From the NCBI GenBank assembly GCA_021813555.1, contig JAKAKG010000203.1, positions 3,507-67,506 of the forward strand: 64,000 bases of DNA, read 5' to 3'. Positions 51,449 through 63,940 of this stretch are shown here, piece by piece. Below the pieces are notes generated by a model. That model ran no database searches and was not told the DNA's origin. It worked only from the letters and a program-made list of their open reading frames with translations. Source of the DNA: Acidobacteriota bacterium (GTDB lineage Bacteria > Acidobacteriota > UBA4820 > DSQY01). Position 1 is the stretch's first letter, and every line of letters starts with the position of its first letter. The translations under genes were made by a program, and so were the position numbers.

Positions 51449-52018
51449 ATGAGCAAACGCTACGAAATACGATTGGCGGGCCTCGGCGGACAGGGCCTGG
51501 TGCTGGCGGGCGTGATCCTGGCCGAGGCGGCCTCCATTTTCGAAAACAAGAACGCCGTTCAGAGCCAGTCTTACGGCCCTGAATCTCGCGGCGGTGCCAG
51601 CAAGAGCGAAGTCATCATCTCGGATGAGGAAATCGATTACCCCAAAGCGACGCACATCGACCTCCTCCTGTGCCTAACCGATGCGGCCGCCGAAAAGTAT
51701 TTGAAGGATTGCCCGGAAACGGCCCTCGTCATCGCCGATTCGGACCTGGTACCCTCGGCCATCCCGGAGAAATACCGCTCCGTCAAAGCCCCCATCACGC
51801 GTTTGGCCCGCGAGACGGTGGGCAAGGAGTTCGTCACCAACATCGTGGCCCTGGGCCTCATCCAGGAACTGACGGGCATCGTGGGTCTTCCTGCCCTGGA
51901 GAAAGCCGTCCTGGGCCGGGTGCCCAAGGGAACCGAGGATCTGAACAAGCGCGCCTTGGAAGTGGGCCGGGAAGCGGCCCATGAATACGGCGCCCACATC
52001 CTCTCAGCGAGGGGATAG
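51449..52018 (+). CDS. korC: 2-oxoacid:ferredoxin oxidoreductase gamma subunit
   Basis: 189 aa with a Pyr:Fd oxidoreductase gamma pattern (GLGGQGLVLAG). Confidence 0.85.
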   Translation: MSKRYEIRLAGLGGQGLVLAGVILAEAASIFENKNAVQSQSYGPESRGGASKSEVIISDEEIDYPKATHIDLLLCLTDAAAEKYLKDCPETALVIADSDLVPSAIPEKYRSVKAPITRLARETVGKEFVTNIVALGLIQELTGIVGLPALEKAVLGRVPKGTEDLNKRALEVGREAAHEYGAHILSARG

Positions 52019-52022
52019 CCGC

Positions 52023-52532
52023 ATGGCCGAGCGAACCTTCACCATCTTCAAACCGGACGCCCTTCGCAAGGGCGTCCAGGGGCACATGCTCCAGCGCCTT
52101 CTGGACGAGGGTTTCGGCGTACGGGGCCTCAAGATGGCCCGCCTGTCCCGGCTTCAGGCCGAGGCCTTTTACGCCGTCCACCGGGAACGCCCCTTCTTTC
52201 CCGAACTCGTGGACTTCATGACCTCCGGCCCCGTGATCGTCATCAGCCTTGAACGAGACAACGCCGTGGCTCACCTGCGGGCCGTCATGGGGCCGACCGA
52301 CTCGGCCAAGGCGCCCAAGGACACGATCCGCGGGCAGTTTGGGACGGACATCCAGTGCAACGCCATCCATGGGTCGGACAGCGTCGAAAACGGCCTCATC
52401 GAAACGGCCTTTTTCTTTTCGGGCGCCGAAACGGTGGGAGACGCCGTTGCGCCGTCCGCGGCCAAGAAAGCGGTCGCGGCTGCGCCCGCGTGGCAGGCCA
52501 ATCCTCTGGGCCGCCCTCCGAAAGGCCGCTGA
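52023..52532 (+). CDS. ndk: Nucleoside diphosphate kinase with ~30-aa Ala/Pro-rich C-terminal extension
   Basis: ATG at 52023 (MAERTFTIFKPDALRKG) with the catalytic His region NAIHGSDS. The extension is AETVGDAVAPSAAKKAVAAAPAWQANPLGRPPKGR. Confidence 0.9.
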   Translation: MAERTFTIFKPDALRKGVQGHMLQRLLDEGFGVRGLKMARLSRLQAEAFYAVHRERPFFPELVDFMTSGPVIVISLERDNAVAHLRAVMGPTDSAKAPKDTIRGQFGTDIQCNAIHGSDSVENGLIETAFFFSGAETVGDAVAPSAAKKAVAAAPAWQANPLGRPPKGR

Positions 52533-52545
52533 GGCCGCGCTCCCC

Positions 52546-53442
52546 ATGGACCGGCCCGTCGCCCCGGGGCACTTCTCCGGCCCGCTCAACCGTCACGGCG
52601 ACGGCGCGTTCACCGTCAGCGTGGGCGGTATCGCCGTTCAGTTCTCTGGGCTTTCCGAGGCGCTGCTCCCGGCGGCCCAGGAGCGGTATTCTCCCTTCCT
52701 CTCCGATGAACCGCCTCTGCACACGGTCGTCCTTTATGACGGGCCGGAGCACTACCTCGACATGGCCGAGGACGGCTTCATGCGCGTGGAGGAGCGCGAC
52801 TTCCCTGAAGGACGGATCATGGTGTCCCATGATTTCGCCGCCTTCTGGCCCGCGGGAGCCTCCGCGGGAACGCTCCGGGTGAGCGTCGCCTTCCCGCTCT
52901 CGAAGGTTCTGTCCGCCATGGAAAACTACCTGCGCTGGTGCGTGGCCGATCTGGCCATCGAGCGCGGCGGGTTCGTCCTGCACAGTGCGGGCCTGGTGCT
53001 GGAGGGGAAGGCCTACGTCTTCTTCGGGCATTCGGGCGCGGGCAAGAGCACGGCCACGACCCTCTCGCTGGAGGGGCGGGGCGCCCTTGCCCTCTCCGAC
53101 GATCTCGTCCTGCTCCTGCGCGAGGGAGACCGCTTCCTGGCGGCCGCCACCCCCTTTCAGGGAAGTATGGCCCAGCGCGTCAAGGAGAAGGGGCTCTGCC
53201 CCCTGGCAGGCCTCTTTCACCTCCGCCAATCGGCCGAAGTCGGGACTCTTCCCCTTGCCCGGGCCGCCGCCGTGGGTATGCTCCTCTCCTGCTGTCCCTT
53301 CGTCGCCGATCCCGGCCGGAGATCGGAGTATCTCCTCCCCATCGTGGAGGATCTGTGCCGGGCCGTTCCCGTGCGGGAGCTGCTTTTCAGGAAGGATCCG
53401 TCCTTCTGGGACGTTGTGCTCAAAAGGGAGGATCAGCCGTGA
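52546..53442 (+). CDS. HPr-kinase-related P-loop protein (HprK C-terminal-like fold; RiPP-associated kinase candidate)
   Basis: The ATG at 52546 lies 14 nt after the ndk stop. It has a Walker A (GHSGAGKST) followed by a SDDLV motif, as in the HprK C-domain and lasso-peptide kinases. It lacks the HprK N-domain and the genomic context is not that of hprK. Confidence 0.7.
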   Translation: MDRPVAPGHFSGPLNRHGDGAFTVSVGGIAVQFSGLSEALLPAAQERYSPFLSDEPPLHTVVLYDGPEHYLDMAEDGFMRVEERDFPEGRIMVSHDFAAFWPAGASAGTLRVSVAFPLSKVLSAMENYLRWCVADLAIERGGFVLHSAGLVLEGKAYVFFGHSGAGKSTATTLSLEGRGALALSDDLVLLLREGDRFLAAATPFQGSMAQRVKEKGLCPLAGLFHLRQSAEVGTLPLARAAAVGMLLSCCPFVADPGRRSEYLLPIVEDLCRAVPVRELLFRKDPSFWDVVLKREDQP

Positions 53443-53711
53443 GCGAAGAGACTCTGCCGAAAAGAAACCCCGACGTATCCTGGAGGACCATCGAGGGCCA
53501 AGCCGTCCTCATTCATAACCGCCTGGGCGAGATCCAGGTCTTGAATGACCTGGGAACTTACATATGGGAACACCTGGAGCTCGGGCCCGAGATCTTGGCC
53601 AGGAATATAGCGCAGGAGCACGAAGTTTCAGTGCCAGACGCCCAGCGCGACGTTGAAGAATTCATGCAGGCGCTGCGTGGCTCAGGAGCTCTGGCCGATG
53701 GAACAGACTGA
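53439..53711 (+). CDS. PqqD-family protein (RiPP precursor recognition element-like)
   Basis: The GTG start overlaps the upstream stop (GTGA) and is preceded by GGGAGG. The 90-aa product is SWRTIEGQAVLIHNRLGEIQVLNDLGTYIWEHLE...DVEEFMQAL, typical of PqqD. Confidence 0.75.
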   Translation: MSEETLPKRNPDVSWRTIEGQAVLIHNRLGEIQVLNDLGTYIWEHLELGPEILARNIAQEHEVSVPDAQRDVEEFMQALRGSGALADGTD

Positions 53712-54765
53712 GCGAGGAACACCCCTGCAGCGGTTGCACGACAGCGCCTTCCGGGCGCGGCATCCCCTGTTTGCGTCGATTGAGCTCACGTACACCTGCA
53801 ACCTGGCCTGCTACTTCTGCTACAACCCCGTCCAGCGCAAGAGCCAGAAGCGGACGCAGCCGGCCCCGGAGAGAGCCGAGTCTCCTTTGACCTTCGAGGA
53901 GATCGTGGGCGTCCTGGACCAATTGAAAGAGATGGGCGTCCTCTACCTCACCCTCACGGGCGGCGAGCCGCTCATGCATCCCCGGTTCTGGGATATCGCT
54001 CAGGCTGCCAAGGACCGGGCCTTTGCCGTTCGTATATTCACCAACGGCGCGGCCCTCACTCAAAACGTGGTGGACCGGCTCGCGACTCTCATGCCCTTTT
54101 GCCTGGAGATGTCCATCCACGGAGCCAAGGCCGAGACCGCCGAGGCCCTCACGCAGGTGAAAGGGTCCTTCCAGCGCCAGATGAACGCGCTCTCCCTTCT
54201 TCAAGGATCGGGCCTCCGGGTCTTTCTCAAGTGCACCGTGACGCGCCTGGTAGAGAACGAACTGGCCGACATCAAGGCGATGGCCGACGGTTTCGGGTTC
54301 CCCCTTTTCTTCGACCCCGTCCTCACGATCTCGGACGACCGGCAGTTTTATCCCATGGAGCTGCGGGCCTCGGACGAGGCCATCGCCTGGCTCTACAAAA
54401 CCTCGGGCTTGAATCTGGGCAACTCGCCCTTCGAGCGGGAGCCCGGCGATTTTAATTGCAGCGTGGGCACGGGAACCCTCCACATCACCCCCTTTGGAGA
54501 GATTCACCCTTGCGTCCAGTGGAAGCAGTCCGTGGGCAGCGTGCGGGAAAAGACCCTTCAGGAGATTTGGGCCACCTCGCCCCTCCTGATGGCGGCCAGG
54601 GAGGCTAACCTGAAGAGCGCGGCCATGCTCAAGGACACCGTGAAGGAGCACGCCTTTTGCGCCCATTGCCCAGGACTGTCTCAGTTGAAATGCGGCGACC
54701 CCCTCCGTCCCGACGAACAGTACGTGAGGGTGGCGAACATCCGATCCAAGCTAGCGGAGACGTAA
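53698..54765 (+). CDS. Radical SAM enzyme with C-terminal SPASM domain (peptide-modifying maturase candidate)
   Basis: The ATG at 53698 overlaps the pqqD-like gene by 14 nt. It has a CNLACYFC radical-SAM cluster motif and C-terminal Cys-rich SPASM-like segments (FNCSVGTG...HPCVQW...CAHCPGLSQLKCGDP). Confidence 0.85.
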   Translation: MEQTERGTPLQRLHDSAFRARHPLFASIELTYTCNLACYFCYNPVQRKSQKRTQPAPERAESPLTFEEIVGVLDQLKEMGVLYLTLTGGEPLMHPRFWDIAQAAKDRAFAVRIFTNGAALTQNVVDRLATLMPFCLEMSIHGAKAETAEALTQVKGSFQRQMNALSLLQGSGLRVFLKCTVTRLVENELADIKAMADGFGFPLFFDPVLTISDDRQFYPMELRASDEAIAWLYKTSGLNLGNSPFEREPGDFNCSVGTGTLHITPFGEIHPCVQWKQSVGSVREKTLQEIWATSPLLMAAREANLKSAAMLKDTVKEHAFCAHCPGLSQLKCGDPLRPDEQYVRVANIRSKLAET

Positions 54766-54889
54766 CCGGTTCAGCGGTTTCTTGTCTTGCCTCAGCGCCG
54801 CGGGCGCTTGGGACCAACGGGAACGATTGGGACTTGACAGGCGGCACGAGATGTCGCAATTTACCTTCGGGAGAAGGAGAGGTGGCAGA

Positions 54890-55018
54890 ATGAAAAAGCC
54901 CTACGAGAAACCCGCGGTGATTTACAAGGAGCGGATTGAGGCCAGAGCTTCGAGTTGCGGGGTAAGCCCGAGCAAGGCTGGAACGGGCACCGGTTGCTCT
55001 GCCCCCTTCGTGAGCTAG
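54890..55018 (+). CDS. 42-aa candidate RiPP precursor peptide MKKPYEKPAVIYKERIEARASSCGVSPSKAGTGTGCSAPFVS
   Basis: A small ORF with a strong SD (GGAGAAGGAGAGG) 7 nt upstream of the ATG. It lies between the rSAM/SPASM gene and the C25 peptidase gene. It is embedded in the track's 78-aa ORF 54782..55018. The product has a charged leader and a Ser/Gly/Thr-rich core with two Cys and a C-terminal Ser. Confidence 0.6.
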   Translation: MKKPYEKPAVIYKERIEARASSCGVSPSKAGTGTGCSAPFVS

Positions 55019-55044
55019 CCGGTTCGGGGCTATCTCTTTTGCAG

Positions 55045-58000
55045 GTGGCACGGATCCAGGGTTTCAACCGCCGCCAGGCATTTTGGCACATCCTCCTTGG
55101 GTTGGCGGCTTTTGTCATAAGTGTTCACCCTCCTGCCGCCTCCTCCGGGGGGCGTCAGGTCTTCCATTTCAGCTGGTCCCCCGCCCCGGGCCAGGCGGCC
55201 TTATGGGCCGAACCTTCCCCTGAGGGGCTCCCGCCGCGAACGCCCTCGGTTTCCATTAAAGTCGCCCTGCCGGCCAACGCCCAGAAAGCATCCCTTCGCG
55301 TGGTGACCGCCCACTGGCAGGCGGTCCCCCCTGGCCATTGGGTCCCCGCCACGGGCGAGGCCGCCGTTCTCGGCCGGCGCGGGGTGTGGCACGGTATCCC
55401 CTACCAGGAAATCATCGTGCATCCCGTCCGGCGAGGTCCCTCCGGGGAAGTGGAGATCTTGTCCACCCTCGTAGGGACCCTTGAGGTGCCCGGCTTGGCC
55501 GGCTCCCTTGATCCTCCCCTGCCGCCCGGGATCCGCGCGCGAACGGACGCCAGCCTCTTCCTCAACCCCACGGGCGCCCTTGCCTTCCGGCACGCCTCCG
55601 AGACGGGCCGAAGCATTTCCAGAACCACCGTCTCCACCTTTCCGCCCGGCGCCAGCCCCGTGCGAGTGGAGGTCGCGCAGGACGGCATTTACCGGTTGGA
55701 TTACACCTATCTCACCTCCCACGGGTTAAGCCCCGAAACCCTGGTGGAGACCATCCACCTGGAATGCGGGGGGGTGGAACTTCCCATCTGGATCGAGGGC
55801 CCATCCTCGGGGCCTCTTTCTCCGTCCAGCGCCGTGGTGTTCTACGGCCAGAAGCTCGCCATCACGAACCGGCCCATGTTCGATGGCGGCGACTTCTCGG
55901 ATACCAACGTGTACTGGCTGTACTCCAACGGCCAGCGGGGGCTTCGGATGGCCACCGCCCCCGCGGCGCCCACGGGCCGCTTCCCTTCCGTGGCACAGTT
56001 TGCGGCCACGGTCCACTTGGAGGTGAACACCTACCTGGACTCACTGGACCACTTCAGGCCTGACGGGGACAACTGGTTCTGGGCCCCCATCCTGGCCGCC
56101 CCCGCTGGGTCGAGCACCTCCAGGGATTTCAGCGTGAACCTGCCCCACCCCTCCGGAGCGGGCCTCTCGGCCACTGCTGTCCTGGCGGGCCTCAACGACG
56201 GCCAACACGGCATCACCCTGGCGCTCAACGGTGCCTCGCCCAGCGCGGGACCCGATCCCGGTCCCTGGCAGGGCAAAGCCATCTCGGCCCAGACGTGCAG
56301 CTTCAGCTCGGGCTTGGCCAACGGAGCCAACACCGTCACTCTGACGTTGCCGGGGGTCGCCGGACAGCCCGATTTCCAGCTTCTGGACTACTTCGATTTC
56401 ACCTATTCGAGGACCTTGGATTCGGACTCGGGCACTCTCCTCATCACGGATGTTGAGGCTTCCGCTCAGTACGCATGCCCGGGGCACCAGACGGCACCAT
56501 ACATTCTCGATCTCTCCGCCTCGGACCCGGCGACGGGGCTCAAGCGCCCCATCCTGCTCACGGGAGCCACGTTCTCCGCGGGCACGGCTACCTTCGAAAT
56601 GCCTGCAAATCCTGGCGTGACGCGGCGCCTCGTGGCCCTATCCAGCGCGCCGCTCCTGCCAAGCGCCGCTTATGTGGCGGCTGCACCCGCGATTCCGGAC
56701 CCCGCCAACCCCGCGGACATGGTCATCATCACCCATCCCGACTTTCATCCCGCGGGAGCCGATGCCGTGTGGCAAGCCTACCTGGCGAGGCGGTCGGAGG
56801 CCATGACGGTAGTAGCGGTGGATGTGGAAAGCATCTACAACGCCTATTCCTACGGCCTCATGGACCCAACAGCGATTCGGAGCTACCTGGCCGCCGCCGC
56901 GGCAGCATGGGGCCGGGCTCCCAAGTACGTCCTCCTCGTGGGGGACGCATCCTATGACTACAAAAACTACACGGGGACGCCTGGCAACACCAGCCGCGTC
57001 CCTACCATGATGTTTGAAGACGCGGGGGATTCCACCTACATGGGCCGGTATCCTTCCGATGCCTGGTTCGCCGACGTGAACGGAGACGGCTACCCAGATT
57101 CGGCGGTGGGCCGCCTTCCCGCACGGTCCTATGAAGAGCTGGCGGGCATGCTCACCAAGATCATGGCCTATGAGGATCAGGCCCTGGCCGGCACCTGGTA
57201 CAAGAGCGGCCTCTTCGTGGCCGACACGTGGACCCAAACCTGGGAGCAGGTCTTCGAACAAGCCAACACCCTCCTGCAAACCACCTACATGGCACCGCCC
57301 TGGAGCGGCACCCACCTGTTTTTTCACGACGCTCCTTATAACGGCACCGACGCCAACGCCTTCGCCTCCGCCTTGAGGGCGGCATGGCCGGGCGCCGCGC
57401 TCATGCACTACAGCGGACACAGCGGCATAAGCAGCCTCGGCAACCAGTATGCTTTCTTCACCTCGTACCCCTCCCGGAATTGCACCAGCGGTACGTGCAG
57501 CGATTCGGACGTAGATCTGCTCCCCCCAGTGGACCTGACTCCCTCGGCCCCCTCAGCCCCTCTGCCCTTCATCGTGAGCAGCAGTTGCTACAACTCAGCT
57601 TTCGACGAGGTGAGCACCGACGCCCTCATGGAAGTTCTGTTAGCCAGGGCGGACCGGGGTACCATCGGGTCCTGCGGATTCTCCACTATCGCCTACCCCG
57701 ACGAGGAGCACACCTTCGCCAACGCATTCTTCGAGCAGGCCTTCGGCCCGTCCAAAACTAGACCGGTGGGGCCGCTGGTGGATGCGGGGCGCTTCTCTCT
57801 GCCCTCCTCCGATGCCCGGTCGGTCATGGGGAACATCCTCATGGGCGATCCTTCCGTCTCCCTGCGCCTGCCCGCCCCCGATCCTCCGCCGGCCTTCGCC
57901 GCTTCGCCCGCGGACGGAGCCGTGGTTCTGTCCTGGGGCTCTCCGGCGGCTCCCGTCTCGAGATTTGAACTCTACAGGTCCGGCGACGGAGGCAAAACTT

Positions 58001-58689
58001 GGGCGGCGGTGGCGAGTCCAGGGCCCTCGGACCGTGGATATAACGATGGCGGCCTGGTGAACGGCGCGGAGTACACATACTACGCCACGAGTCTGGACAC
58101 GGGCGGCTTCGAAGGCCCGCCGAGCCTTGCGGCCACCGCCGTGCCCGAACCCGGCATCTGCACCGTGCTGTGCCAGGCGCAGGCGCCCACCTCGGGCTCT
58201 CCAGGGACATCCGTGCCCTTCCAGGCTTCGGCCACCAGCACGAGCTGTGCTCAAAGTTTGGCCTATGACTGGGATTTCGGAGACGGCAGCCTTCGCGCGA
58301 GCATCCCGGCCCCCACCCATGTCTATGCCTCGGCTGGCGCCTATACCTGGACGTTCACCGCTTCGGCGGATTCGGCCTCCTGCATGAAAAGCGGGACTAT
58401 CGTGGTGGCCGTCCCCCCCCACGTCACGCGCGTGCAGAAGGCCGCGAGCCCCTTCCGCATCATCATCACGGGGACGAACCTGCATGCCGACGCGAGCGTC
58501 TATGTTGGCGGCCAGCGGTGGGCCACGGTCAAAATCGTCCCGGAAACCAAGGTCGTCCTCAAGGGCACCGGCCTCAAGGCGCTCTTCCCCGCGGGGGTCT
58601 TCGTGCCCGTGCGCCTGGTGAACGGCGACGGCGGCGAGACGACGGTGAGCTACAACCGCACAGGCAACCAGTGGCGCCAGGGCCCGTAA
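55045..58689 (+). CDS. Secreted peptidase C25 (gingipain-like cysteine protease) domain protein with C-terminal Ig/PKD-like beta domains
   Basis: A GTG start at 55045 gives the signal peptide RRQAFWHILLGLAAFVISVHPPAASS. C25-like features are YVLLVGDASYD, HYSGHSG (putative catalytic His) and SSSCYNSAFD (putative catalytic Cys). It is ~1214 aa. Confidence 0.7.
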   Translation: MARIQGFNRRQAFWHILLGLAAFVISVHPPAASSGGRQVFHFSWSPAPGQAALWAEPSPEGLPPRTPSVSIKVALPANAQKASLRVVTAHWQAVPPGHWVPATGEAAVLGRRGVWHGIPYQEIIVHPVRRGPSGEVEILSTLVGTLEVPGLAGSLDPPLPPGIRARTDASLFLNPTGALAFRHASETGRSISRTTVSTFPPGASPVRVEVAQDGIYRLDYTYLTSHGLSPETLVETIHLECGGVELPIWIEGPSSGPLSPSSAVVFYGQKLAITNRPMFDGGDFSDTNVYWLYSNGQRGLRMATAPAAPTGRFPSVAQFAATVHLEVNTYLDSLDHFRPDGDNWFWAPILAAPAGSSTSRDFSVNLPHPSGAGLSATAVLAGLNDGQHGITLALNGASPSAGPDPGPWQGKAISAQTCSFSSGLANGANTVTLTLPGVAGQPDFQLLDYFDFTYSRTLDSDSGTLLITDVEASAQYACPGHQTAPYILDLSASDPATGLKRPILLTGATFSAGTATFEMPANPGVTRRLVALSSAPLLPSAAYVAAAPAIPDPANPADMVIITHPDFHPAGADAVWQAYLARRSEAMTVVAVDVESIYNAYSYGLMDPTAIRSYLAAAAAAWGRAPKYVLLVGDASYDYKNYTGTPGNTSRVPTMMFEDAGDSTYMGRYPSDAWFADVNGDGYPDSAVGRLPARSYEELAGMLTKIMAYEDQALAGTWYKSGLFVADTWTQTWEQVFEQANTLLQTTYMAPPWSGTHLFFHDAPYNGTDANAFASALRAAWPGAALMHYSGHSGISSLGNQYAFFTSYPSRNCTSGTCSDSDVDLLPPVDLTPSAPSAPLPFIVSSSCYNSAFDEVSTDALMEVLLARADRGTIGSCGFSTIAYPDEEHTFANAFFEQAFGPSKTRPVGPLVDAGRFSLPSSDARSVMGNILMGDPSVSLRLPAPDPPPAFAASPADGAVVLSWGSPAAPVSRFELYRSGDGGKTWAAVASPGPSDRGYNDGGLVNGAEYTYYATSLDTGGFEGPPSLAATAVPEPGICTVLCQAQAPTSGSPGTSVPFQASATSTSCAQSLAYDWDFGDGSLRASIPAPTHVYASAGAYTWTFTASADSASCMKSGTIVVAVPPHVTRVQKAASPFRIIITGTNLHADASVYVGGQRWATVKIVPETKVVLKGTGLKALFPAGVFVPVRLVNGDGGETTVSYNRTGNQWRQGP

Positions 58690-58769
58690 CCCTCTTCCCT
58701 CCACCGGCCACACGTTCTTTCCTTCGCGCATGGGGATCCGTATAGTGGAACCGGGCATGAAGGGGAGAG

Positions 58770-59312
58770 GTGCGGGTGCAGGACCTTGTCGCGGTTGAAC
58801 AGTGGCTTCGGGAGGCGAAGGACGGCGACGAGGAGGCCTTTGCCCGCCTGGTGAAGGCTTACTATGGGCCCCTCTTCCGCCTCGTGTACCAGATGGTGCC
58901 TCGCGCCCACGATGCGGAGGACATCCTCCAAGAGACGTTCTTCAGATTCTTTCAGGCTCTCCGGCGGCTTGTCCCCGGCCAGGACCCCTTCCCTTTCTTG
59001 AAAAGCATCGCGGTGCGGCGCACCTACAGCTTCTTGAAGCGCAATGACCGCATCCATGTTTCGCTGGACCACCTTCCCGAAGACACTCCCCAACTTTCCG
59101 TCCAAGGACACCCGTACGAGATCCGGACCCTCTACCTCTGGGCGGCGAAACTGCCCCCGGCCCAGCGTCTCGTGTTCCTCCTGCGCGACGTTCTCGGAGT
59201 AGAGGACGGTGAAATCGCCCGCCTCACGGGCCTCCGGGAGGTGACCGTGCGGCGCCATGCCTCCCTGGCCCGGCAGACGCTGGAACGCGAATTCGGCTCC
59301 GAGTCCCTCTGA
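58770..59312 (+). CDS. ECF-type RNA polymerase sigma factor
   Basis: GTG start after GAAGGGGAGAG. It has sigma-70 region 2 (DAEDILQETFFRFF) and region 4. Confidence 0.75.
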   Translation: MRVQDLVAVEQWLREAKDGDEEAFARLVKAYYGPLFRLVYQMVPRAHDAEDILQETFFRFFQALRRLVPGQDPFPFLKSIAVRRTYSFLKRNDRIHVSLDHLPEDTPQLSVQGHPYEIRTLYLWAAKLPPAQRLVFLLRDVLGVEDGEIARLTGLREVTVRRHASLARQTLEREFGSESL

Positions 59313-59409
59313 GGGGCGTCCGCCTCCCCGGAGCCGGCTGCGCCTCCCACGGCCGACCTTCGAGCTCGGCTGGTTCTCCGCGTTGCGGAGGCCCCCCGGG
59401 TCCCTTATA

Positions 59410-60078
59410 ATGGGCTTTAGATGGGAGCAGAACGTGGACTTGGCGAAGATCCGAAAAAAAGCTCGGGGCGGCGCGCCGGGAGGAACGAGGGCCGCGGGAC
59501 CGCCGCCGGAGGCGGAACCATCGGCACCGGCGGCCCAGGCGGCGGACCCGGATGTTCTGCCAGGGCCTGCGGCCGACTCCGAATCGCCGGCCTTCGCCCT
59601 CCCGACGGCCCAGCCCGCAAAGGAGGACACGGCAGCTCCCGCCGAGCCCGCGGCCGCAGGAGAGCGCCTCCTCATCTTTGATCTGGACGGCGAGAAATAC
59701 GCCATCCCCATCCACGACATCGCCCAGATCATCGACATGCCCCCCGCCACGTTCGTCCCCAACGCACCGCCCTTTCTGTCCGGCATCTTCTCCCTCCGGG
59801 GGCGGATCGTCTCCATCATCAACGTGGCGTCCAGACTGGGCCTGATCTCCTCCAAACCGGAGGCACCCAAGGTGATCGTGCTGGATTTGGGCGCAGACCA
59901 CATCGGACTTCTCGTGGACCAGATCGACCAGGTGGTGGAGGTGAACGTGGCCGCGCTGGAACCGGTGCCCGAGGGATTCAAGCCCGTGGTCCAGGACTTC
60001 GTGGAGGGTGTCTTTCACCACAAGGGGCGAGCCGTTGGCTTCCTCAATCTGCCCATGTTCCTTGCATTCGACGTCTGA
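59410..60078 (+). CDS. cheW: CheW-domain protein with low-complexity N-terminal region
   Basis: The ATG at 59410 starts a C-terminal CheW-like domain (LLIFDLDGEKYAIPIHDIAQII...IFSLRGRIVSIINV). Confidence 0.8.
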   Translation: MGFRWEQNVDLAKIRKKARGGAPGGTRAAGPPPEAEPSAPAAQAADPDVLPGPAADSESPAFALPTAQPAKEDTAAPAEPAAAGERLLIFDLDGEKYAIPIHDIAQIIDMPPATFVPNAPPFLSGIFSLRGRIVSIINVASRLGLISSKPEAPKVIVLDLGADHIGLLVDQIDQVVEVNVAALEPVPEGFKPVVQDFVEGVFHHKGRAVGFLNLPMFLAFDV

Positions 60079-60095
60079 CCCGGGGAGCCGCCGCC

Positions 60096-60866
60096 ATGTT
60101 CGTCCAGTGTCCGAATTGCCTCAAGCGATACCGCCTCAACGAGAGTCAGGCCAGGCTCCTCAGAATCCGGTGCCGAAGCTGCAGCACCGAGTTCCTCGTG
60201 TCGCCCTCCGTGGAGCCGAGCCATGAGCTGGCGGGAGCCCACGGGCGTGCCACGGCCGTCGTGGCCGACATCCAGCGGGACTTCCGCAACAGCTTGGTGG
60301 AGCTGCTCCACCGCCTGGGCCTCAACCTGGTGGTCACGGAAGACGGCCTCACGGCGCTCGCGGAGGTCCGGTCCAGGAGGCCCCGTCTCCTGCTGGTGAA
60401 TCCGTACCTTCCCGGGCTCATGGGGACGGATCTCATCGCCCGGCTCAGGGCCGAAGAGGCGGCGCCTCCAACCATCATCCTTTTGGGAGCCATCCACAAT
60501 CGGAAGCGATACAGACGGCGGCCCCAGTCCCTTTACGGAGCCGACGACTACCTGGACGAGGGGGGTTCGGACGAAGCGGTCCTGCGCAAAATCGAGTTCC
60601 ATCTGCAGCTCGCGCCATCCGCATCGGCCCCAGAGGGCTCCGACGAGGAAGCCACGAGACTGGCGAGAAGCGTCTTCGCCGATCTGCTGGTGTACGATCC
60701 GCGGCGTATGGCCCAGGTAAAAACACCTGAAGACTTCTTTCGGCTCTTCCGGGACGAGGTGGCTGAGGGACGGCGTTACATCGAGACCCGAAAACAGGGC
60801 GCCGGTGACCACCTGCGGGACGTGGTCGCGCGCTACCTTCAGATCGCTGAAGAGGGGGAAGCATGA
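60096..60866 (+). CDS. Zinc-ribbon (MJ0042-type) plus receiver-like domain protein
   Basis: An N-terminal CPNC...CRSC zinc ribbon is followed by a CheY-like fold with a degenerate acidic pocket. Confidence 0.6.
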   Translation: MFVQCPNCLKRYRLNESQARLLRIRCRSCSTEFLVSPSVEPSHELAGAHGRATAVVADIQRDFRNSLVELLHRLGLNLVVTEDGLTALAEVRSRRPRLLLVNPYLPGLMGTDLIARLRAEEAAPPTIILLGAIHNRKRYRRRPQSLYGADDYLDEGGSDEAVLRKIEFHLQLAPSASAPEGSDEEATRLARSVFADLLVYDPRRMAQVKTPEDFFRLFRDEVAEGRRYIETRKQGAGDHLRDVVARYLQIAEEGEA

Positions 60867-63073
60867 ACACGGAGTTCGCCCGAGAGATCGCCTCTCCGGA
60901 CGTGGAGACGCGCCGAAGGGCCGCCATCGCCCTGGCGGACGAGACGGCGGCGACGGCCCTCCCGTGGCTGGACACCCTCCTGGGTGACCCCAACTGGCGG
61001 GTCCGGAAGGCAGCCGTGGAGACGGTCTTGGCCCTTCCCACCGAAGCCGTCATGCCGACGCTGATCCAGGCGCTCTATGACCCCGAAAACGCAGGCAAGC
61101 GCAATTCGGCCTATGAATCTCTCGTCAAGGCGGGCCCTTCGGTTCTTCCCCACGTCTACGACCACCTGGTGGAGGAAGACACGGACGTAAAACTCGCCCT
61201 CATCTCCTTGCTGGGCGAGGTGCCGAGCCGAAATTCCGCCCCTCACCTCATCTACTATCTGAGCCACGACAACATCAACGTCGTCTCCGCGGCCATCACC
61301 AGCCTCGGGCGCCTGAAAGACGCGGGCAACCTGCCCGTTCTCGTCGACCTTTTCCAGCGCCAGGACGATTGGGTCTGGTTCCATCTCATCGAAGCCCTCA
61401 GCGGCATCGGAGGTCCCGCCGCCACGTCCAAGCTCATCGAACTGTACGAGCATCCCAAGTACCGCAGGGCCGTCCTCAAGTCCTTCGGGAGGATGGGCGA
61501 TCTTCATACCGTATCCTTCCTCCTCCAGCGGGCCGCCGACCCCGGTTCGCCCCTCCTCGCCGTGATGGAGGCCCTGGGACAGATCTACAACGCCAACATC
61601 CCCGAAGCCCTGTTGCCGCGCCATCACCGGGAAGTGGCGCGTCAGATCCAGCTTCACTTCCCCATGGAGGTCCTGTCCCGCCTCGAAACGGCTTGGGGAG
61701 AAGCTAAAGTGACCGAGCGCCGCGGCATGATTCTGGTGGCCGGGGCCCTGGCGGACCTGTCGCTGCTCGACAAGGTCCTCGCCGAGCTGGCGAGCCCCTA
61801 CCTCCAGCGAGACGCCTTCAACGCGGCTCTGGCCTTCGGCCGGGCGGCAGCACGCACCCTCATCGCGCGCCTCAACGCTTCGCCGGCCCAGGACCAGCGC
61901 CTCCTCCTCATCCGCCTCCTCGCCGCCGCCGGCGGCCCCGATGCCGTGGTCCCCCTTCTGAACCAGTCGTACGAAGACGACGTCCAGATCCGGATGGAAG
62001 CCATCGCCGCGCTGGGGGAGGTGGACGATCCCCGCTGCCTCCAGAAACTCGTGGGCGTCCTGCGAGAGCCCGACATGACGTTCCACGACGTGGCCCTGCG
62101 GGCCGCGCGCAACCTCGCCCGGAAGCATCCCGAGCACCGGGCCCGGCTTGCCATCTCGGGGGAGACCATGGTCTCCGACGATGAAGAATCGGTGCGCTGC
62201 GCGGCCTACGCCCTTCTGGCGGAGGGCCGAAACGGCGACGCGGCCCTGCTCGTCCCCGGACTCCAGGACCCGTCACCCGTGGTCCGGCAGGCCGTGGTGC
62301 GGATCATCGCCCAGGGAGGGGGCGCCCACACCTTCCAGGACCTTTTGCCCATGCTGGGAGACACGGCTGCCCGGGTTCGCCGGGCCGTCATTTCGGCCCT
62401 GGGGCGCGAGCTGCTGGCGCGCCAACCGGAAATCCTCATCACGTCGCTCTCGGACCCCGACGTCTGGGTCCGGGCGGAAACGGCCTTCTTCCTTTCCCAG
62501 AGCACCGATCCGTCCATCAGCCGGTCCCTGCTCAAAGCCCTCGAGGAGGACGAGCTGCCCGTCCGGCTCGGCGCCCTCCGGGGCCTCGCCGAAGTGGGCT
62601 GCGGAAGCCTCTTCAAGGCGGTCCTCGCCCTTGCCACCCAAGCCTCCAGCCCGCTTGAGGTCCGCCAGGCGGCCCTGGGGGCTCTGGCCAAATCGGGGCG
62701 CCCCGATGCCGTGAAGGCCCTCACGGACGCCGTGCAGGAACACCGGTGGGAGATCCGTTCCACCGCCATCGAGCTCATGGGAGCCTCCCAGGACCGGCGG
62801 TTTATCCCGATCCTCCTGAAAGAGCTCGAACGGGACCAGGACACCCTCGTGCGCCAGACCGTCATCCACGCGCTCATCGCCCTCAAGGCCATCGAGGCCG
62901 TACCGCGCATGCTCAACTACCTGACGGACCCGGCCCTGAAGGACGCCACCTTTGCCTTTTTCACATCTCTGGGCAGGGAACACGCCCGCCTCATCGAGAA
63001 CGAGGCTCAGTCGGTGGATTTCCAGACCAAGCTCATCCTCATCGAGATCCTCAAGCACCTGGAGAATCTCTAA
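60863..63073 (+). CDS. HEAT/PBS-lyase repeat protein (chemosensory cluster-associated)
   Basis: 736 aa of repeated ~30-aa HEAT-like units (...VRxAAxxALG...). Its start overlaps the upstream stop (ATGA). Confidence 0.75.
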   Translation: MNTEFAREIASPDVETRRRAAIALADETAATALPWLDTLLGDPNWRVRKAAVETVLALPTEAVMPTLIQALYDPENAGKRNSAYESLVKAGPSVLPHVYDHLVEEDTDVKLALISLLGEVPSRNSAPHLIYYLSHDNINVVSAAITSLGRLKDAGNLPVLVDLFQRQDDWVWFHLIEALSGIGGPAATSKLIELYEHPKYRRAVLKSFGRMGDLHTVSFLLQRAADPGSPLLAVMEALGQIYNANIPEALLPRHHREVARQIQLHFPMEVLSRLETAWGEAKVTERRGMILVAGALADLSLLDKVLAELASPYLQRDAFNAALAFGRAAARTLIARLNASPAQDQRLLLIRLLAAAGGPDAVVPLLNQSYEDDVQIRMEAIAALGEVDDPRCLQKLVGVLREPDMTFHDVALRAARNLARKHPEHRARLAISGETMVSDDEESVRCAAYALLAEGRNGDAALLVPGLQDPSPVVRQAVVRIIAQGGGAHTFQDLLPMLGDTAARVRRAVISALGRELLARQPEILITSLSDPDVWVRAETAFFLSQSTDPSISRSLLKALEEDELPVRLGALRGLAEVGCGSLFKAVLALATQASSPLEVRQAALGALAKSGRPDAVKALTDAVQEHRWEIRSTAIELMGASQDRRFIPILLKELERDQDTLVRQTVIHALIALKAIEAVPRMLNYLTDPALKDATFAFFTSLGREHARLIENEAQSVDFQTKLILIEILKHLENL

Positions 63074-63082
63074 AGTCCGGCC

Positions 63083-63940
63083 ATGTTGAACCCCAACGAT
63101 GGGCCTCAGATGCCCCTGCTGGATGACGATCTCTACCGGCGTTTCTGCGTCCTTATTCATGACGAGACGGGCCTCTCCTTCGGGCCCGGCTCCCAGTTTT
63201 TCCTGGAGCGTAGGCTCGAGTCGCGCATGTCGGCCCTCGGAGGCGTGAGCCCCAGGGACTATTTGAACTACATCCGCTACGACCCGGACAGGACCCAGGA
63301 ATGGGACCACCTCGTGACGGTCATCACCACCAACGAGACGTACTTCATGAGGGAGATCAAGCAGCTTCGGTGCTTCCAGAATGATATCCTCCCCGCCCTA
63401 TGGGAACGGAGCGGGCGAAGCAGGATACGGGTCTGGAGCGCGGGCTGTTCCAGCGGAGAGGAACCTTACAGCATCGCCATCCTGGCCAAGGAAACGGGCC
63501 GTTATCCCGAGGGAGCCCTGGAGATCTACGCCACGGACATCAACTCGCGAGTCCTGGCGAAGGCCAAGGCGGGCCTCTACACGGAGAGCTCCTTCCGGGC
63601 CGTGGACGAAGCGTTCAAAGCACGCTGGTTCACGGAGGAAGAACCTGGGCGCTTCCGCGTCGCCCCCTCCATCCAAAAATGCGTGAACTTTTCGAGATTC
63701 AACCTCTTCGACCCAGGCAGGTACGGCCTGCTGCCGGCGTTCGATGTCATTTTCTGCCGCAATGTGATCATATACTTTGACATGGAAGCCAAAGTCAAAG
63801 TTATGGAAAGGTTCCACGAGAAGCTCAAGGCCCAGGGTTACCTGTTGCTGGGCCACTCCGAAAGCCTCATCTCCGTCACGGACACCTTCAAACTCATCCA
63901 CCTTCCGGGCGACCTCGTTTACGTCAAGGAGGGGCCATGA
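63083..63940 (+). CDS. cheR: Chemotaxis protein methyltransferase CheR (second paralog)
   Basis: Motifs ETYFMRE and IRVWSAGCSSGEEPYSIAIL, with a SAM-binding fold. Confidence 0.9.
   Translation: MLNPNDGPQMPLLDDDLYRRFCVLIHDETGLSFGPGSQFFLERRLESRMSALGGVSPRDYLNYIRYDPDRTQEWDHLVTVITTNETYFMREIKQLRCFQNDILPALWERSGRSRIRVWSAGCSSGEEPYSIAILAKETGRYPEGALEIYATDINSRVLAKAKAGLYTESSFRAVDEAFKARWFTEEEPGRFRVAPSIQKCVNFSRFNLFDPGRYGLLPAFDVIFCRNVIIYFDMEAKVKVMERFHEKLKAQGYLLLGHSESLISVTDTFKLIHLPGDLVYVKEGP

Follow-up and report, generated by a model that had tools for sequence, protein, structure and literature searches.

A conserved five-gene operon of a probable, uncharacterised RiPP family, combining a lasso/LPP-type kinase module with a radical SAM enzyme and a C25 peptidase

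Organization of the Operon

The window analysed here is a stretch of 64,000 nucleotides from an Acidobacteriota bacterium, and the operon occupies positions 52546-58689 of it, with all five genes on the + strand. The first gene (52546..53442) encodes a 298 aa HprK-like/ScmC-family P-loop kinase, in which a beta-rich N-terminal domain is followed by the kinase domain at the C-terminus. It is followed by the genes for a discrete PqqD-type RiPP recognition element (RRE) of 90 aa (53439..53711; PF05402) and for a 355 aa radical SAM enzyme with a reduced SPASM/Twitch-like domain (53698..54765; PF04055, PF13186). The fourth gene (54890..55018), with the Shine–Dalgarno sequence AAGGAGAGGTGG upstream, encodes a precursor peptide of 42 aa, and the fifth (55045..58689) encodes a C25 (gingipain/PorU-like) cysteine peptidase with a C-terminal PKD domain (PF01364). 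A preliminary description of this DNA had proposed these five genes, and this content was borne out, the domains by profile searches and each gene where it had been placed. The translational coupling claimed for the first three genes also holds, as the kinase stop codon and the GTG start of the PqqD gene overlap in the sequence GTGA, and the PqqD and radical SAM genes overlap by 14 nt. The small ORF likewise stands as a 42 aa frame at 54890-55018, but the start implied for it was off by one base.

The precursor gene may possess its own promoter, with TTGACA and CAATTT separated by 17 nt at 54834..54862 (+ strand). In an intergenic alignment of the window with loci L073, L064 and L075, TTGACA is found at an equal distance from the ATG in these relatives. 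A consensus scan did not call this promoter, and its assignment is an inference only. Directly after the precursor stop codon lies a terminator-like hairpin with a T-run (55016..55041, + strand), for which the evidence is weak, as its z-score is -1.4 and the region contains five terminator-like sites where chance alone predicts 3.1. No exporter or immunity gene adjoins the operon in the window.

In the lineage of the window, the cassette holds a fixed position among housekeeping genes (sucCD-korDABC-ndk), directly after ndk, and in some loci it is translationally coupled to ndk. Such a fixed housekeeping setting is unusual for an antibiotic cluster. Cassettes of the Terriglobia and Bdellovibrio types do not adjoin kor/ndk.

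The HprK-like Kinase

The kinase carries the Walker A motif GHSGAGKST, and its residues H146, K167, D185 and D186, invariant in the homologue alignment, match the catalytic His-Lys-Asp-Asp motif known from lasso-peptide kinases. Foldseek comparison of an AF2 model (pLDDT 94.6) retrieved PEPCK at E 4e-7 and HprK/P structures (1knx, 1ko7, 1kkl, 3tqf) at E 1e-5 to 1e-4. According to this model, the protein has the PEPCK/HprK fold; its kinase activity is inferred. Matches to NCBIfam models are weak (HprK_rel_A 31.5 bits, ScmC 28.4, HprK_rel_B 23.9), and the local Pfam copy gave no match; the precomputed Pfam family is PF27840 'ScmC'. The same family contains the kinase of L072, an LPP-type cluster, with which the window kinase shares 31% identity over 156 aa (E 9e-22). 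Kinases of the LppK type resemble the window kinase more closely than does the single lasso kinase used for comparison. In loci L014 and L070, an NTP_transf_5 gene adjoins the kinase.

A bona fide HprK/P was also considered and rejected, since the protein has a different N-terminal domain and gave no match to TIGR00679 (the hpr-ser equivalog, cut-off 240) at E <= 0.01. Only in the fold of its P-loop domain does the protein resemble HprK/P. In other words, the possibility that the preliminary description had named as refuting its reading, a genuine HprK, does not apply; the protein is a member of the ScmC family, in which kinases of RiPP clusters are found as well.

The PqqD Protein and the Radical SAM Enzyme

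The PqqD protein matches PF05402 with 44 bits, and its best NCBIfam match is the lasso PqqD chaperone, at 34.4 bits against a cut-off of 70. The radical SAM enzyme matches PF04055 (77.9 bits) and the SPASM family PF13186 (35.1 bits), and its CX3CX2C motif is formed by C34, C38 and C41. The SPASM domain is degenerate in the subclade of the window, where C254, C272, C321 and C324 are the only conserved Cys and the CX2CX5CX3C motif lacks its first two.

The top NCBIfam match of this enzyme is MftC (104.8 bits, cut-off 265), followed by NirJ (104.2 vs 515), AhbD (98.1 vs 500) and PqqE (87.7 vs 381), with the thioether enzymes StsB and AlbA at 89 (cut-off 625) and 59 (cut-off 850). The protein matches C-C-forming or decarboxylating enzymes (MftC, PqqE, AhbD, NirJ) and thioether synthases equally well. 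No sulfatase-maturase model occurs among the best 25 of the 74 NCBIfam families matched. As scores of about 100 bits against MftC, NirJ, AhbD and PqqE lie far below the cut-offs of 265-515, the enzyme belongs to no known non-peptide family, which removes a further outcome that could have contradicted the earlier reading. More generally, no component of the operon reaches the curated NCBIfam cut-offs for SynChlorMet, HPr-rel-A, mycofactocin, lasso, PQQ or heme d1 systems. The closest solved structure by sequence is that of SkfB, an enzyme forming thioethers (6efn, E 2e-15); PqqE (6c8v) was found at E 4.5e-9. Some JGI records automatically annotate homologues of the enzyme as MftC.

The Precursor Peptide Family

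The precursor, MKKPYEKPAVIYKERIEARASSCGVSPSKAGTGTGCSAPFVS, consists of the leader MKKPYEKPAVIYKERIEARA and the core SSC-GVSPSKAGTGTG-C-SAPFVS. Its leader motif KKPYEKPAV fits YxxPx[V/I/L]. The two Cys are C23, preceded by Ser21 and Ser22, and C36, and the peptide ends in Ser42. When the ORF was compared with that of the 88%-identical relative L073, 15 synonymous and 3 non-synonymous differences were counted (pN/pS 0.06). The small ORF is a genuine gene under purifying selection.

Beside homologous kinase and radical SAM genes, a total of 44 distinct homologous peptides were recovered, which come from Acidobacteriota, Myxococcota, Bdellovibrionota and other lineages. Each of the 44 has a YxxP leader, followed after 13-17 residues by a first Cys, then by a second Cys and finally by Ser at the C-terminus. 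The loop between the two Cys always contains at least one Lys or Arg, mostly exactly one. A Cys lies 4-9 residues upstream of the invariant C-terminal Ser. A C-terminal Arg instead of Ser is found in P0121, a database variant of the window peptide, and in the peptide of L015.

The C25 Peptidase

The product of the fifth gene matches PF01364 with 213.7 bits against a cut-off of 23, the C25 domain spanning approximately 56719-57864, and contains a PKD domain. The longest ORF reaches back to 54955, a position within the precursor gene; a GTG at 55045 precedes the signal-peptide-like segment RRQAFWHILLGLAAFVISVHPPAASS, and the N-terminal segment is conserved in L073. Judging from these sequence features, the protein looks extracytoplasmic, either secreted or membrane-anchored. 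Its motifs YSGHSG and SSSCYNS align with the conserved GH[GSA] and Cys of other cassette-linked C25 proteins. PorU-like models cover its N-terminal and catalytic regions, with two PorU-type NCBIfam scores of 174.3 bits (cut-off 420) and 132, both below cut-off. A PorU equivalog was rejected on the score of 174.3 against 420 bits.

Conservation of the Cassette

In a kinase-seeded search, a radical SAM gene was found within 6 kb of the kinase in 50 of 77 loci, and 38 of these 50 also contain a recognisable peptide. Starting from the radical SAM enzyme, each of the three homologues that were checked (40-42% identity) was located in an ScmC+PqqD cassette whose peptide ends in Ser. The small ORF is kept beside homologous radical SAM, PqqD and kinase genes in all close relatives that are complete enough, and also in distant phyla, so the loss of this neighbourhood, named earlier as another possible refutation, is not observed. 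The cassette ranges over classes of Acidobacteriota, relatives in Chloroflexota, Bdellovibrionota, Myxococcota and Nitrospirota. This recurrence in dozens of loci, together with purifying selection on the peptide ORF, is more than chance. Gene content, conservation and co-occurrence demonstrate that the operon is real and conserved.

The C25 gene was present in 20 of the 50 kinase and radical SAM loci and absent within 9 kb in the other 30. Several phyla have it next to the cassette, in at least four different gene arrangements. This recurrence in different orders indicates a partner rather than a mere neighbour, in agreement with the earlier inclusion of the peptidase in the cassette.

Two Chloroflexota loci, L006 and L008, contain the same leader, kinase, PqqD protein and C25 peptidase without a radical SAM gene. 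The cores of their peptides contain no Cys and no Lys or Arg, and although the kinase is present, their C-terminus is not Ser. The Cys-free cores of these loci represent a natural control that supports assigning the Cys residues to the radical SAM enzyme.

Comparison with Characterised Systems

The closest characterised relatives are the kinase-tailored lasso peptides and the linear polyphosphorylated peptides (LPP), neither of which has a radical SAM enzyme or a C25 peptidase; for the kinase itself, the LPP family is the nearest. Neither this family nor SynChlorMet had figured in the preliminary description. LPP clusters (lppA-K-B-S-D-N) were described by Popov et al. (Nat Commun 2026, PMC13381572), who reported that LppK, in a pathway that depends on an RRE, polyphosphorylates Ser of a peptide with a YxxP leader, the site being core Ser3. 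The window operon shares with them the YxxPx[V/L] leader, a discrete PqqD-type RRE and a kinase of the ScmC family (PF27840). In contrast, LPP clusters lack a radical SAM enzyme and a C25 peptidase, and their cores, which are long and vary in sequence, do not show the C...K/R...C...S-COOH pattern; radical SAM, C25 and Acidobacteria are not mentioned in that paper. The precursor of L072 fits the LPP consensus YxxPxVLxHQxIxFETxxS, whereas the window leader shares only YxxPxV and continues with IYKERIEARASSC. The window operon contains no archaeal-type signal peptidase I (LppS); apart from L072, only the Chloroflexota relatives L006 and L014 carry an S24/S26-like gene.

Lasso-peptide kinases (poly)phosphorylate the strictly conserved C-terminal Ser of the linear precursor (PMC9266682). 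Lasso systems of the paeninodin/pseudomycoidin type resemble the window operon in their YxxP leader with a discrete B1 RRE, His-Lys-Asp-Asp kinase and C-terminal Ser. The window KKPYEKPAV with its PqqD protein fits the combination of [Y/W]xxPx[L/V/I] and RRE, with lasso RRE models below cut-off. However, no lasso cyclase (the Asn-synthase-like protein C) was found in or next to the window operon or, by Pfam annotation, in the syntenic loci L064-L066 and L073, and no B2 transglutaminase-like leader peptidase in the operon or these loci; in place of cyclase and B2, the window has a radical SAM enzyme and an invariant pair of Cys. A canonical kinase-type lasso cluster, with Asn_synthase and Transglut_core3, is present in L049 (Acanthopleuribacter pedis, Acidobacteriota), where the precursor starts with KKPYEKP like the window peptide and ends in Ser.

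SynChlorMet (TIGR04248-TIGR04251), a system with a bioinformatic definition only, similarly combines an HprK-like ScmC, the PqqD homologue ScmD and radical SAM/SPASM enzymes. Its cut-offs are not met (ScmC 28.4 vs 125, ScmD 18.1 vs 100, ScmE 63.5 vs 400, ScmF 74.9 vs 400), and it has two radical SAM enzymes, whereas the window has one, with an identified precursor family and a C25 partner. To our knowledge, going by the TIGRFAM description, no precursor has been identified for SynChlorMet. For the HPr-rel-A system, the window kinase reaches 31.5 bits against the 200 of TIGR04352, and TIGR04353 does not match the window PqqD protein.

Sactipeptide and ranthipeptide maturases (SkfB, AlbA, StsB, PapB) are likewise auxiliary-cluster radical SAM enzymes acting with an RRE on Cys-containing precursors, and SkfB has a reduced (Twitch-type) auxiliary domain like that of the window enzyme. 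In those systems, however, the RRE is usually fused to the maturase and there is no kinase; the linkage in the window product is unknown, and the scores are far below cut-offs. Mycofactocin also unites a short peptide, a PqqD-like chaperone and a radical SAM/SPASM enzyme, but it has no kinase or C25 peptidase, and the window lacks MftD/E/F and the C-terminal Gly-Val-Tyr, its peptide ending in Phe-Val-Ser.

Proposed Pathway and Alternative Explanations

Taken together, the locus is probably an uncharacterised RiPP-family operon in which a leader–RRE–kinase module of the lasso/LPP type is joined to a radical SAM cross-linker and a C25 peptidase. The precursor would present its YxxPx[V/I/L] leader to the PqqD-type element, whose binding is inferred and which would hand the peptide to the two enzymes. 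The kinase would phosphorylate Ser, possibly several times, and Ser42 is inferred as the most likely site; as the kinase is nearer to the LppK type, which acts on core Ser3, the site could instead be Ser21/22. The radical SAM enzyme would act on C23 and C36, and the inferred chemistry is most likely an intramolecular thioether of the sactipeptide/ranthipeptide type, a cross-link that would close the Lys-containing loop. The putatively extracytoplasmic C25 peptidase most likely processes the exported peptide, by cleaving off the leader or by a cut at the conserved Lys/Arg; export and this role are also inferred. By analogy, the most likely product is a small modified peptide, Cys cross-linked and probably phosphorylated at its last Ser. 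Each of these chemical steps rests on analogy, since a product has yet to be observed.

The checks that could have refuted it support the earlier interpretation as a peptide-maturation cassette unlike characterised systems. A bolder version, which we regard as possible but tentative, holds that recombination of the lasso/LPP-type module with a radical SAM cross-linker created a new RiPP class, whose product is a small macrocycle, cross-linked through Cys, with a (poly)phosphorylated C-terminal Ser, functionally coupled to a giant secreted C25 peptidase as a substrate cut at the loop Lys/Arg or as an inhibitor or regulator. Such a class remains a prediction because no product chemistry has been shown.

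The role of the peptidase could also be reversed, with the modified peptide made for C25 as a dedicated inhibitor, latency factor, activator or ligated cargo, and the Lys/Arg of the cross-linked loop serving as a P1 'bait' for a gingipain-like enzyme specific for Arg/Lys. Gingipains cut behind Arg or Lys, genes for proteases and their inhibitors often lie side by side (e.g., staphopain/staphostatin), and protease inhibitors are known among RiPPs, microviridins for example; all this suits such a ligand, as do the adjacency of C25 in several gene orders and phyla, the Lys/Arg present in the loop of every one of the 44 precursors (mostly a single one), the conserved catalytic His and Cys of C25 and the match of PorU-like models to its N-terminal and catalytic regions. 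We nevertheless consider this unlikely, given the 30 of 50 loci without C25 within 9 kb and the C25-containing L006 and L008, whose cores lack both Lys/Arg and Cys. Moreover, the cleavage specificity of cassette C25 enzymes is unknown, and the PorU models reach only 174 of 420 bits. Alternatively, the peptide could be the precursor of an intracellular cofactor or of a metal/redox molecule serving core metabolism in the manner of mycofactocin or PQQ rather than of a secreted natural product, in which case the radical SAM enzyme would act on the C-terminus or form C-C bonds. The order of its NCBIfam matches (MftC, then NirJ, AhbD and PqqE), the MftB/MftC/MftA-like set of PqqD, radical SAM enzyme and short peptide, the fixed place after sucCD-korDABC-ndk with occasional coupling to ndk, the absence of an adjoining transporter or immunity gene and the invariance of both Cys are compatible with this. 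What makes it decidedly improbable is that the scores are far below cut-offs (104.8 vs 265 for MftC), that the peptide has no MftA-type Gly-Val-Tyr end, that the Terriglobia-type and Bdellovibrio-type cassettes lie away from kor/ndk, that a recurrent secreted protease does not suit a cofactor pathway, and that leader, RRE and kinase are of the lasso/LPP type.

A further scheme, to which we give very little credence, has the phospho-Ser eliminated to dehydroalanine and attacked by Cys to give a lanthionine-like ring, leaving epimerisation or a C-C link to the radical SAM enzyme. Lanthipeptides of classes III-V are dehydrated by phosphorylation of Ser/Thr followed by elimination, a route that would fit the kinase, the invariant C-terminal Ser and the Cys 4-9 residues before it. 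NCBIfam and Pfam searches, however, revealed no lyase or cyclase homologue in the operon, and an NTP_transf_5 gene, whose product decorates phospho-Ser in pseudomycoidin, stands beside the kinase in L014 and L070. In addition, the homologous kinases PadeK, ThcoK, PsmK and LppK leave a stable phosphate or polyphosphate (PMC9266682, PMC13381572).

Significance

An RRE, an HprK-like kinase and a radical SAM/SPASM enzyme are each already known from RiPP biosynthesis. Their combination with this precursor family and a C25 peptidase was not found in the searchable literature and is covered by no curated model. The core pattern of Cys, Lys/Arg, Cys and C-terminal Ser offers testable predictions of new peptide chemistry. 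The locus also shows a leader–RRE–kinase module to be common to lasso peptides, LPPs and a radical SAM pathway, and this sharing bears directly on the recent question of how RREs tell similar YxxP leaders apart. We know of no earlier description of such a pairing between a RiPP peptide and a protease; if the link to C25 is functional, this pathway would be the first among RiPPs to involve a clan-CD cysteine protease. The cassette is widespread in poorly studied phyla, and related cassettes occur in dozens of copies in soil and sediment bacteria.

Organization of the operon

The plus-strand genes at 52546-58689 probably represent a RiPP pathway that combines known modules in a way not described before and possesses its own precursor family. 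In the absence of product data, it is highly probable that they form a maturation operon acting on a 42-aa peptide. The preliminary description had proposed a possible new RiPP class or modification system here; this interpretation is supported and the finding is real, with the gene set present exactly as it had been listed. Members of the precursor/cassette family occur widely in under-studied phyla, and the chemistry they imply is specific and testable.

The first gene (52546-53442, +) encodes an HprK-like/ScmC-family protein of 298 aa containing GHSGAGKST. Its stop codon shares a GTGA overlap with the GTG start of the second gene (53439-53711, +), which encodes a 90-aa PqqD protein (PF05402, 44 bits) and whose end overlaps by 14 nt with the ATG of the radical SAM (rSAM) gene (53698-54765, +; 355 aa, Radical_SAM 77.9 bits and SPASM 35.1 bits). 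Both overlaps had been claimed as coupling of the first three genes, and both are present. After a 124-nt spacer, the 42-aa precursor ORF, MKKPYEKPAVIYKERIEARASSCGVSPSKAGTGTGCSAPFVS, lies at 54890-55018 (+), preceded by a strong Shine–Dalgarno sequence, AAGGAGAGGTGG. The last gene is a long plus-strand ORF with its stop at 58689, carrying Peptidase_C25 (213.7 bits) and PKD domains. The Pfam/NCBIfam search matched PqqD, Radical_SAM with SPASM, and Peptidase_C25, while the first gene gave only matches below cut-off.

The precursor peptide family

In four close relatives (L064, L065, L066 and L073), the neighborhood sucCD-korDABC-ndk-kinase-PqqD-rSAM-small ORF-C25-ECF sigma-CheW is conserved, and each has a called gene of 40-41 aa at the precursor position. 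Relative to L073, whose kinase is 88% identical, 15 synonymous differences in the precursor ORF stand against 3 non-synonymous ones, for a pN/pS of 0.06, which rises to 0.3-0.4 when the comparison is with more distant relatives. Further homologues were sought by HMM and pattern searches in six-frame translations of all fetched loci. Such peptides adjoin kinase/rSAM genes in many lineages, and an independent search seeded with the rSAM enzyme led to three loci that carry them too.

The 44 distinct peptides follow a common plan. A [Y/W]xxP motif is followed by the first Cys 13-17 residues on (with one outlier), the Cys1-Cys2 loop of 6-18 residues always includes at least one Lys/Arg, mostly exactly one, and the C-terminus, 3-8 residues beyond the last Cys, is always Ser. 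The window-type class has the leader KKPYEKPxVIYKEKIEARA and two Cys. In the Terriglobia/Acidoferrales class, the precursor gene sits between the rSAM and kinase genes, the leader is KPYExPxVxRVSLRPEEAVLG, and the core, HCK...GP...C...CRTxGS, has three Cys. These peptides fall outside every NCBIfam model.

Several loci depart from this picture. These searches found no precursor in L069, L005 or L017; genes in the L069 and L065 assemblies are fragmented, apparently because of frameshifts. The Actinomycetota locus L015 encodes a different peptide with a C-terminal Arg. A 12.7-kb ENA contig (P0121) carries a copy of the window peptide whose sole difference is Arg instead of Ser as the last residue; it is the only close relative breaking the C-terminal Ser rule, which may be a sequencing/assembly difference or a real variant. 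L066 has two tandem precursor genes (10279-10425 and 10457-10576) with differing cores (…GACAKAGAGPCGSGPYVS and …GSCTKAGVGPPDCTAGTLVS).

The kinase-like protein

The first gene product scores 31.5 bits with HprK_rel_A, 28.4 with ScmC and 23.9 with HprK_rel_B, all well under the NCBIfam cut-offs, and precomputed protein-database annotation assigns it, like each of its homologues, to Pfam PF27840, ‘ScmC’. Across 27 aligned homologues, H146, the G-x-S-G-A-G-K-[ST] loop (K167) and D185-D186 are invariant. These residues correspond to the His-Lys-Asp-Asp motif of lasso-peptide kinases, whose necessity was demonstrated by mutagenesis (PMC9266682, a review that cites Zhu et al. 2016).

Since a sequence search of the PDB with this alignment returned only generic P-loop matches, a fold search was needed. 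The AlphaFold model built from the alignment is confident (pLDDT 94.6, pTM 0.91), and Foldseek matched it in the PDB to ATP-dependent PEP carboxykinases (E about 4e-7) and to the HPr kinase/phosphorylases 1knx, 1ko7, 1kkl and 3tqf (E 1e-5 to 1e-4). The model shows the fold already known from HprK/PEPCK P-loop kinases. The superfamily is large, as a profile search of 1.84 billion representatives recovered 1,277 proteins at E <= 1e-30 and 10,551 at E <= 1e-10; it takes in the lasso kinases and those of the linear polyphosphorylated peptides (LPP) too. Kinase-seeded pattern scans of metagenomes and genomes gave few close relatives among the matches listed, and exact-protein look-ups were more productive.

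The radical SAM enzyme

The rSAM enzyme carries the CX3CX2C motif as C34/C38/C41. Conservation of C-terminal Cys in the window subclade is confined to four residues (C254, C272, C321 and C324), while the Terriglobia-type and Bdellovibrio-type enzymes retain the full SPASM CX2CX5CX2-3C motif, the former with additional CxxC pairs. Among solved structures, the Twitch-type thioether synthase SkfB (6efn, E 2e-15) matches best, followed by PqqE. Because its NCBIfam scores are about 60-105 bits against cut-offs of 265-850, the enzyme lies outside all the families matched (MftC, NirJ, AhbD, TIGR04053, StsB, PqqE, ScmE/F, SkfB, AlbA and others). Homology does not reveal its chemistry. In public records its homologues go by ‘radical SAM/SPASM domain-containing protein’ or, through automatic annotation, by ‘MftC’.

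Two Chloroflexota loci, L006 and L008, serve as controls lacking the rSAM gene. They encode a kinase, PqqD, C25 and an S24/S26-type peptidase together with a peptide having a window-like leader (RKPYxKPxI...LEARAGS), whose core is Cys-free and whose C-terminal residue is not Ser. The joint loss of Cys and rSAM supports Cys as the rSAM target. That these peptides lack a C-terminal Ser although the kinase is present shows that the C-terminus is not an obligatory site of action for this kinase family. These cores are Pro/Asp-rich and end in Asp. With L014, in which kinase, PqqD, signal-peptidase-like S24/S26 and C25 genes likewise occur without rSAM, these clusters (L006:6995-12923, L008:6836-12930, L014:73-8022) look like an LPP-like family also using C25.

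Recurrence of the gene set

A homologous rSAM gene lies within 6 kb in 50 of the 77 loci with an ScmC-like gene. PqqD is detectable in at least 34 of these 50 loci, a lower bound given the insensitivity of phmmer for so small a protein. A pattern-positive peptide is found in 38, several of the remaining 12 being truncated contigs, and a C25 gene lies within 9 kb in 20.

The position of C25 varies. The window order is kinase-PqqD-rSAM-peptide-C25; Terriglobia have PqqD-rSAM-peptide-kinase-C25, with C25 proteins of about 2,000-2,350 aa; Halobacteriovorax (L013) has C25-peptide-kinase...PqqD-rSAM; and L005 has C25-PqqD-rSAM-kinase. In L010, the peptide and C25 genes are on the strand opposite to kinase-PqqD-rSAM. 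Given these several arrangements, the conserved G-H-[GSA] and Cys catalytic motifs of cassette-linked C25 proteins and the conserved signal-peptide-like segment at the N-terminus of the window protein, C25 is inferred to be a recurrent partner, probably extracytoplasmic and active, and not an obligatory one.

An expanded cassette occupies the equivalent chromosomal site, after kor-ndk, in L075 (2543-14164) and L076 (1249-11826). It comprises three ScmC-like paralogues, the first starting in a 4-nt overlap with the ndk stop, as well as PqqD, two rSAM/SPASM genes, a B12-binding radical SAM gene, a 38-aa precursor, MKKQYSKPQIVQRERIEVLAGSCSKMVAGCNGGPGAAS, and a 1,350-aa C25 peptidase.

Relation to known systems

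The kinase P0116 from Heyndrickxia, a weaker match of the kinase search, lies in a cluster ordered precursor-kinase-PqqD-signal peptidase I-like-ABC exporter-NTP_transf_5. The precursor of this cluster (…RPIVLSHQPIQFETSQS…) fits the consensus of the ‘linear polyphosphorylated peptide’ family (PMC13381572, 2026), in which the HprK-like kinase LppK polyphosphorylates core Ser3 and a signal-peptidase-like enzyme cuts off the leader. That paper makes no mention of radical SAM, C25 or Acidobacteria. The window kinase is 31% identical over 156 aa to the kinase of the P0116 cluster, including the C-terminal FRKDPxFW motif.

A second parallel is offered by kinase-type lasso clusters, whose kinase adds one or more phosphates to the conserved Ser at the C-terminus of the linear precursor (PMC9266682). 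A canonical cluster of this type occurs in the cultured Acidobacteriota strain Acanthopleuribacter pedis KCTC 12899 (NZ_JAFREP010000005.1; L049:3968-8082), comprising PqqD, an Asn-synthase-like cyclase, the precursor, an ScmC-family kinase and a transglutaminase-like B2 protein. Its precursor opens with KKPYEKP, as the window peptide does, and ends in Ser; a near-identical precursor stands beside an ScmC-family gene in the Holophagae MAG locus L041. The leader, RiPP recognition element and kinase module are therefore common to the LPP and lasso systems and the window operon, whereas the latter has an rSAM enzyme, and homologous loci often C25, in place of their leader peptidase and cyclase. 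NTP_transf_5 genes are found near the kinase in some cassettes (L070:4621-5799, which contains rSAM, and L014:5793-6941). This family is the partner that decorates phospho-Ser in pseudomycoidin and LPP clusters.

Alternative explanations

The operon might be a member of an already curated system. SynChlorMet has the same three enzyme types, yet its models are not matched, and membership of SynChlorMet, HPr-rel-A, GeoRSP, mycofactocin, PQQ or heme d1 pathways is ruled out by scores several-fold under the curated cut-offs; a literature search on this gene combination (kinase/ScmC, PqqD, rSAM, C25; SynChlorMet) found nothing relevant. Nor does the rSAM enzyme fall in a known non-peptide family, its PqqE, NirJ and AhbD scores being below cut-off. 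A bona fide HprK/P tied to the PTS, which would likewise have refuted the proposal, is excluded by the lack of any hpr-ser equivalog match and by the different gene context. A chance ORF is incompatible with the low pN/pS and the 44 homologues, so that the small ORF is a genuine gene conserved beside homologous rSAM/kinase genes. The gene set as a whole recurs among homologous loci. The C25 peptidase is not universal; its recurrence across gene orders and phyla rules out a mere syntenic neighbor and upholds its inclusion in the cassette.

A regulatory RNA in the spacer (54766-54889) was also considered, as conservation there relative to L073 is about equal to that of the flanking coding sequence. 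Rfam gave no match across 52000-59500 at E <= 1, and the conservation fits a promoter better: a perfect TTGACA at 54834-54839, some 50 nt ahead of the precursor's ATG, keeps its distance in L073, L064 and L075. This conserved element suggests, on sequence grounds, that the precursor gene has its own promoter. A terminator downstream of the precursor is not supported, only a weak hairpin, no more than chance expectation, being present.

Proposed maturation pathway

The PqqD protein is inferred to bind the YEKP leader, and the kinase would phosphorylate a Ser of the precursor. Ser42, at the C-terminus, is the only hydroxyl residue conserved family-wide and the equivalent of the lasso-system site; its phosphorylation could equally well prove right or wrong. 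LPP suggests Ser21/22, at the leader-core junction, as an alternative. The rSAM enzyme would modify both invariant Cys, with at least one thioether cross-link closing the Lys-containing loop as its most probable outcome, an assignment that remains tentative and somewhat more open to being wrong than right. C25 is envisaged to act extracytoplasmically on the exported product; a function as leader or processing protease is possible, leaning towards doubtful, and the peptide may instead regulate or inhibit the protease.

Flanking genes

Directly upstream, ndk (51981-52532) is separated from the kinase gene by 13 nt. Its product extends at the C-terminus by about 30 Ala/Pro/Lys-rich residues past the usual NDK length of about 140 aa, and L066 carries a tandem pair of NDK-domain genes here. 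Downstream of C25, the region 58770-63940 encodes an ECF sigma factor, a CheW-like protein, a zinc-ribbon response regulator, a 736-aa HEAT-repeat protein and a CheR methyltransferase, in an order that is syntenic in relatives. A regulatory link of these genes to the cassette is possible, without functional data. In L069, an ECF sigma gene lies directly 3' of the rSAM gene though C25 is absent. L067 and L068 each have a lone ScmC-like gene, with one for a HEAT-repeat/PPIase protein after it.
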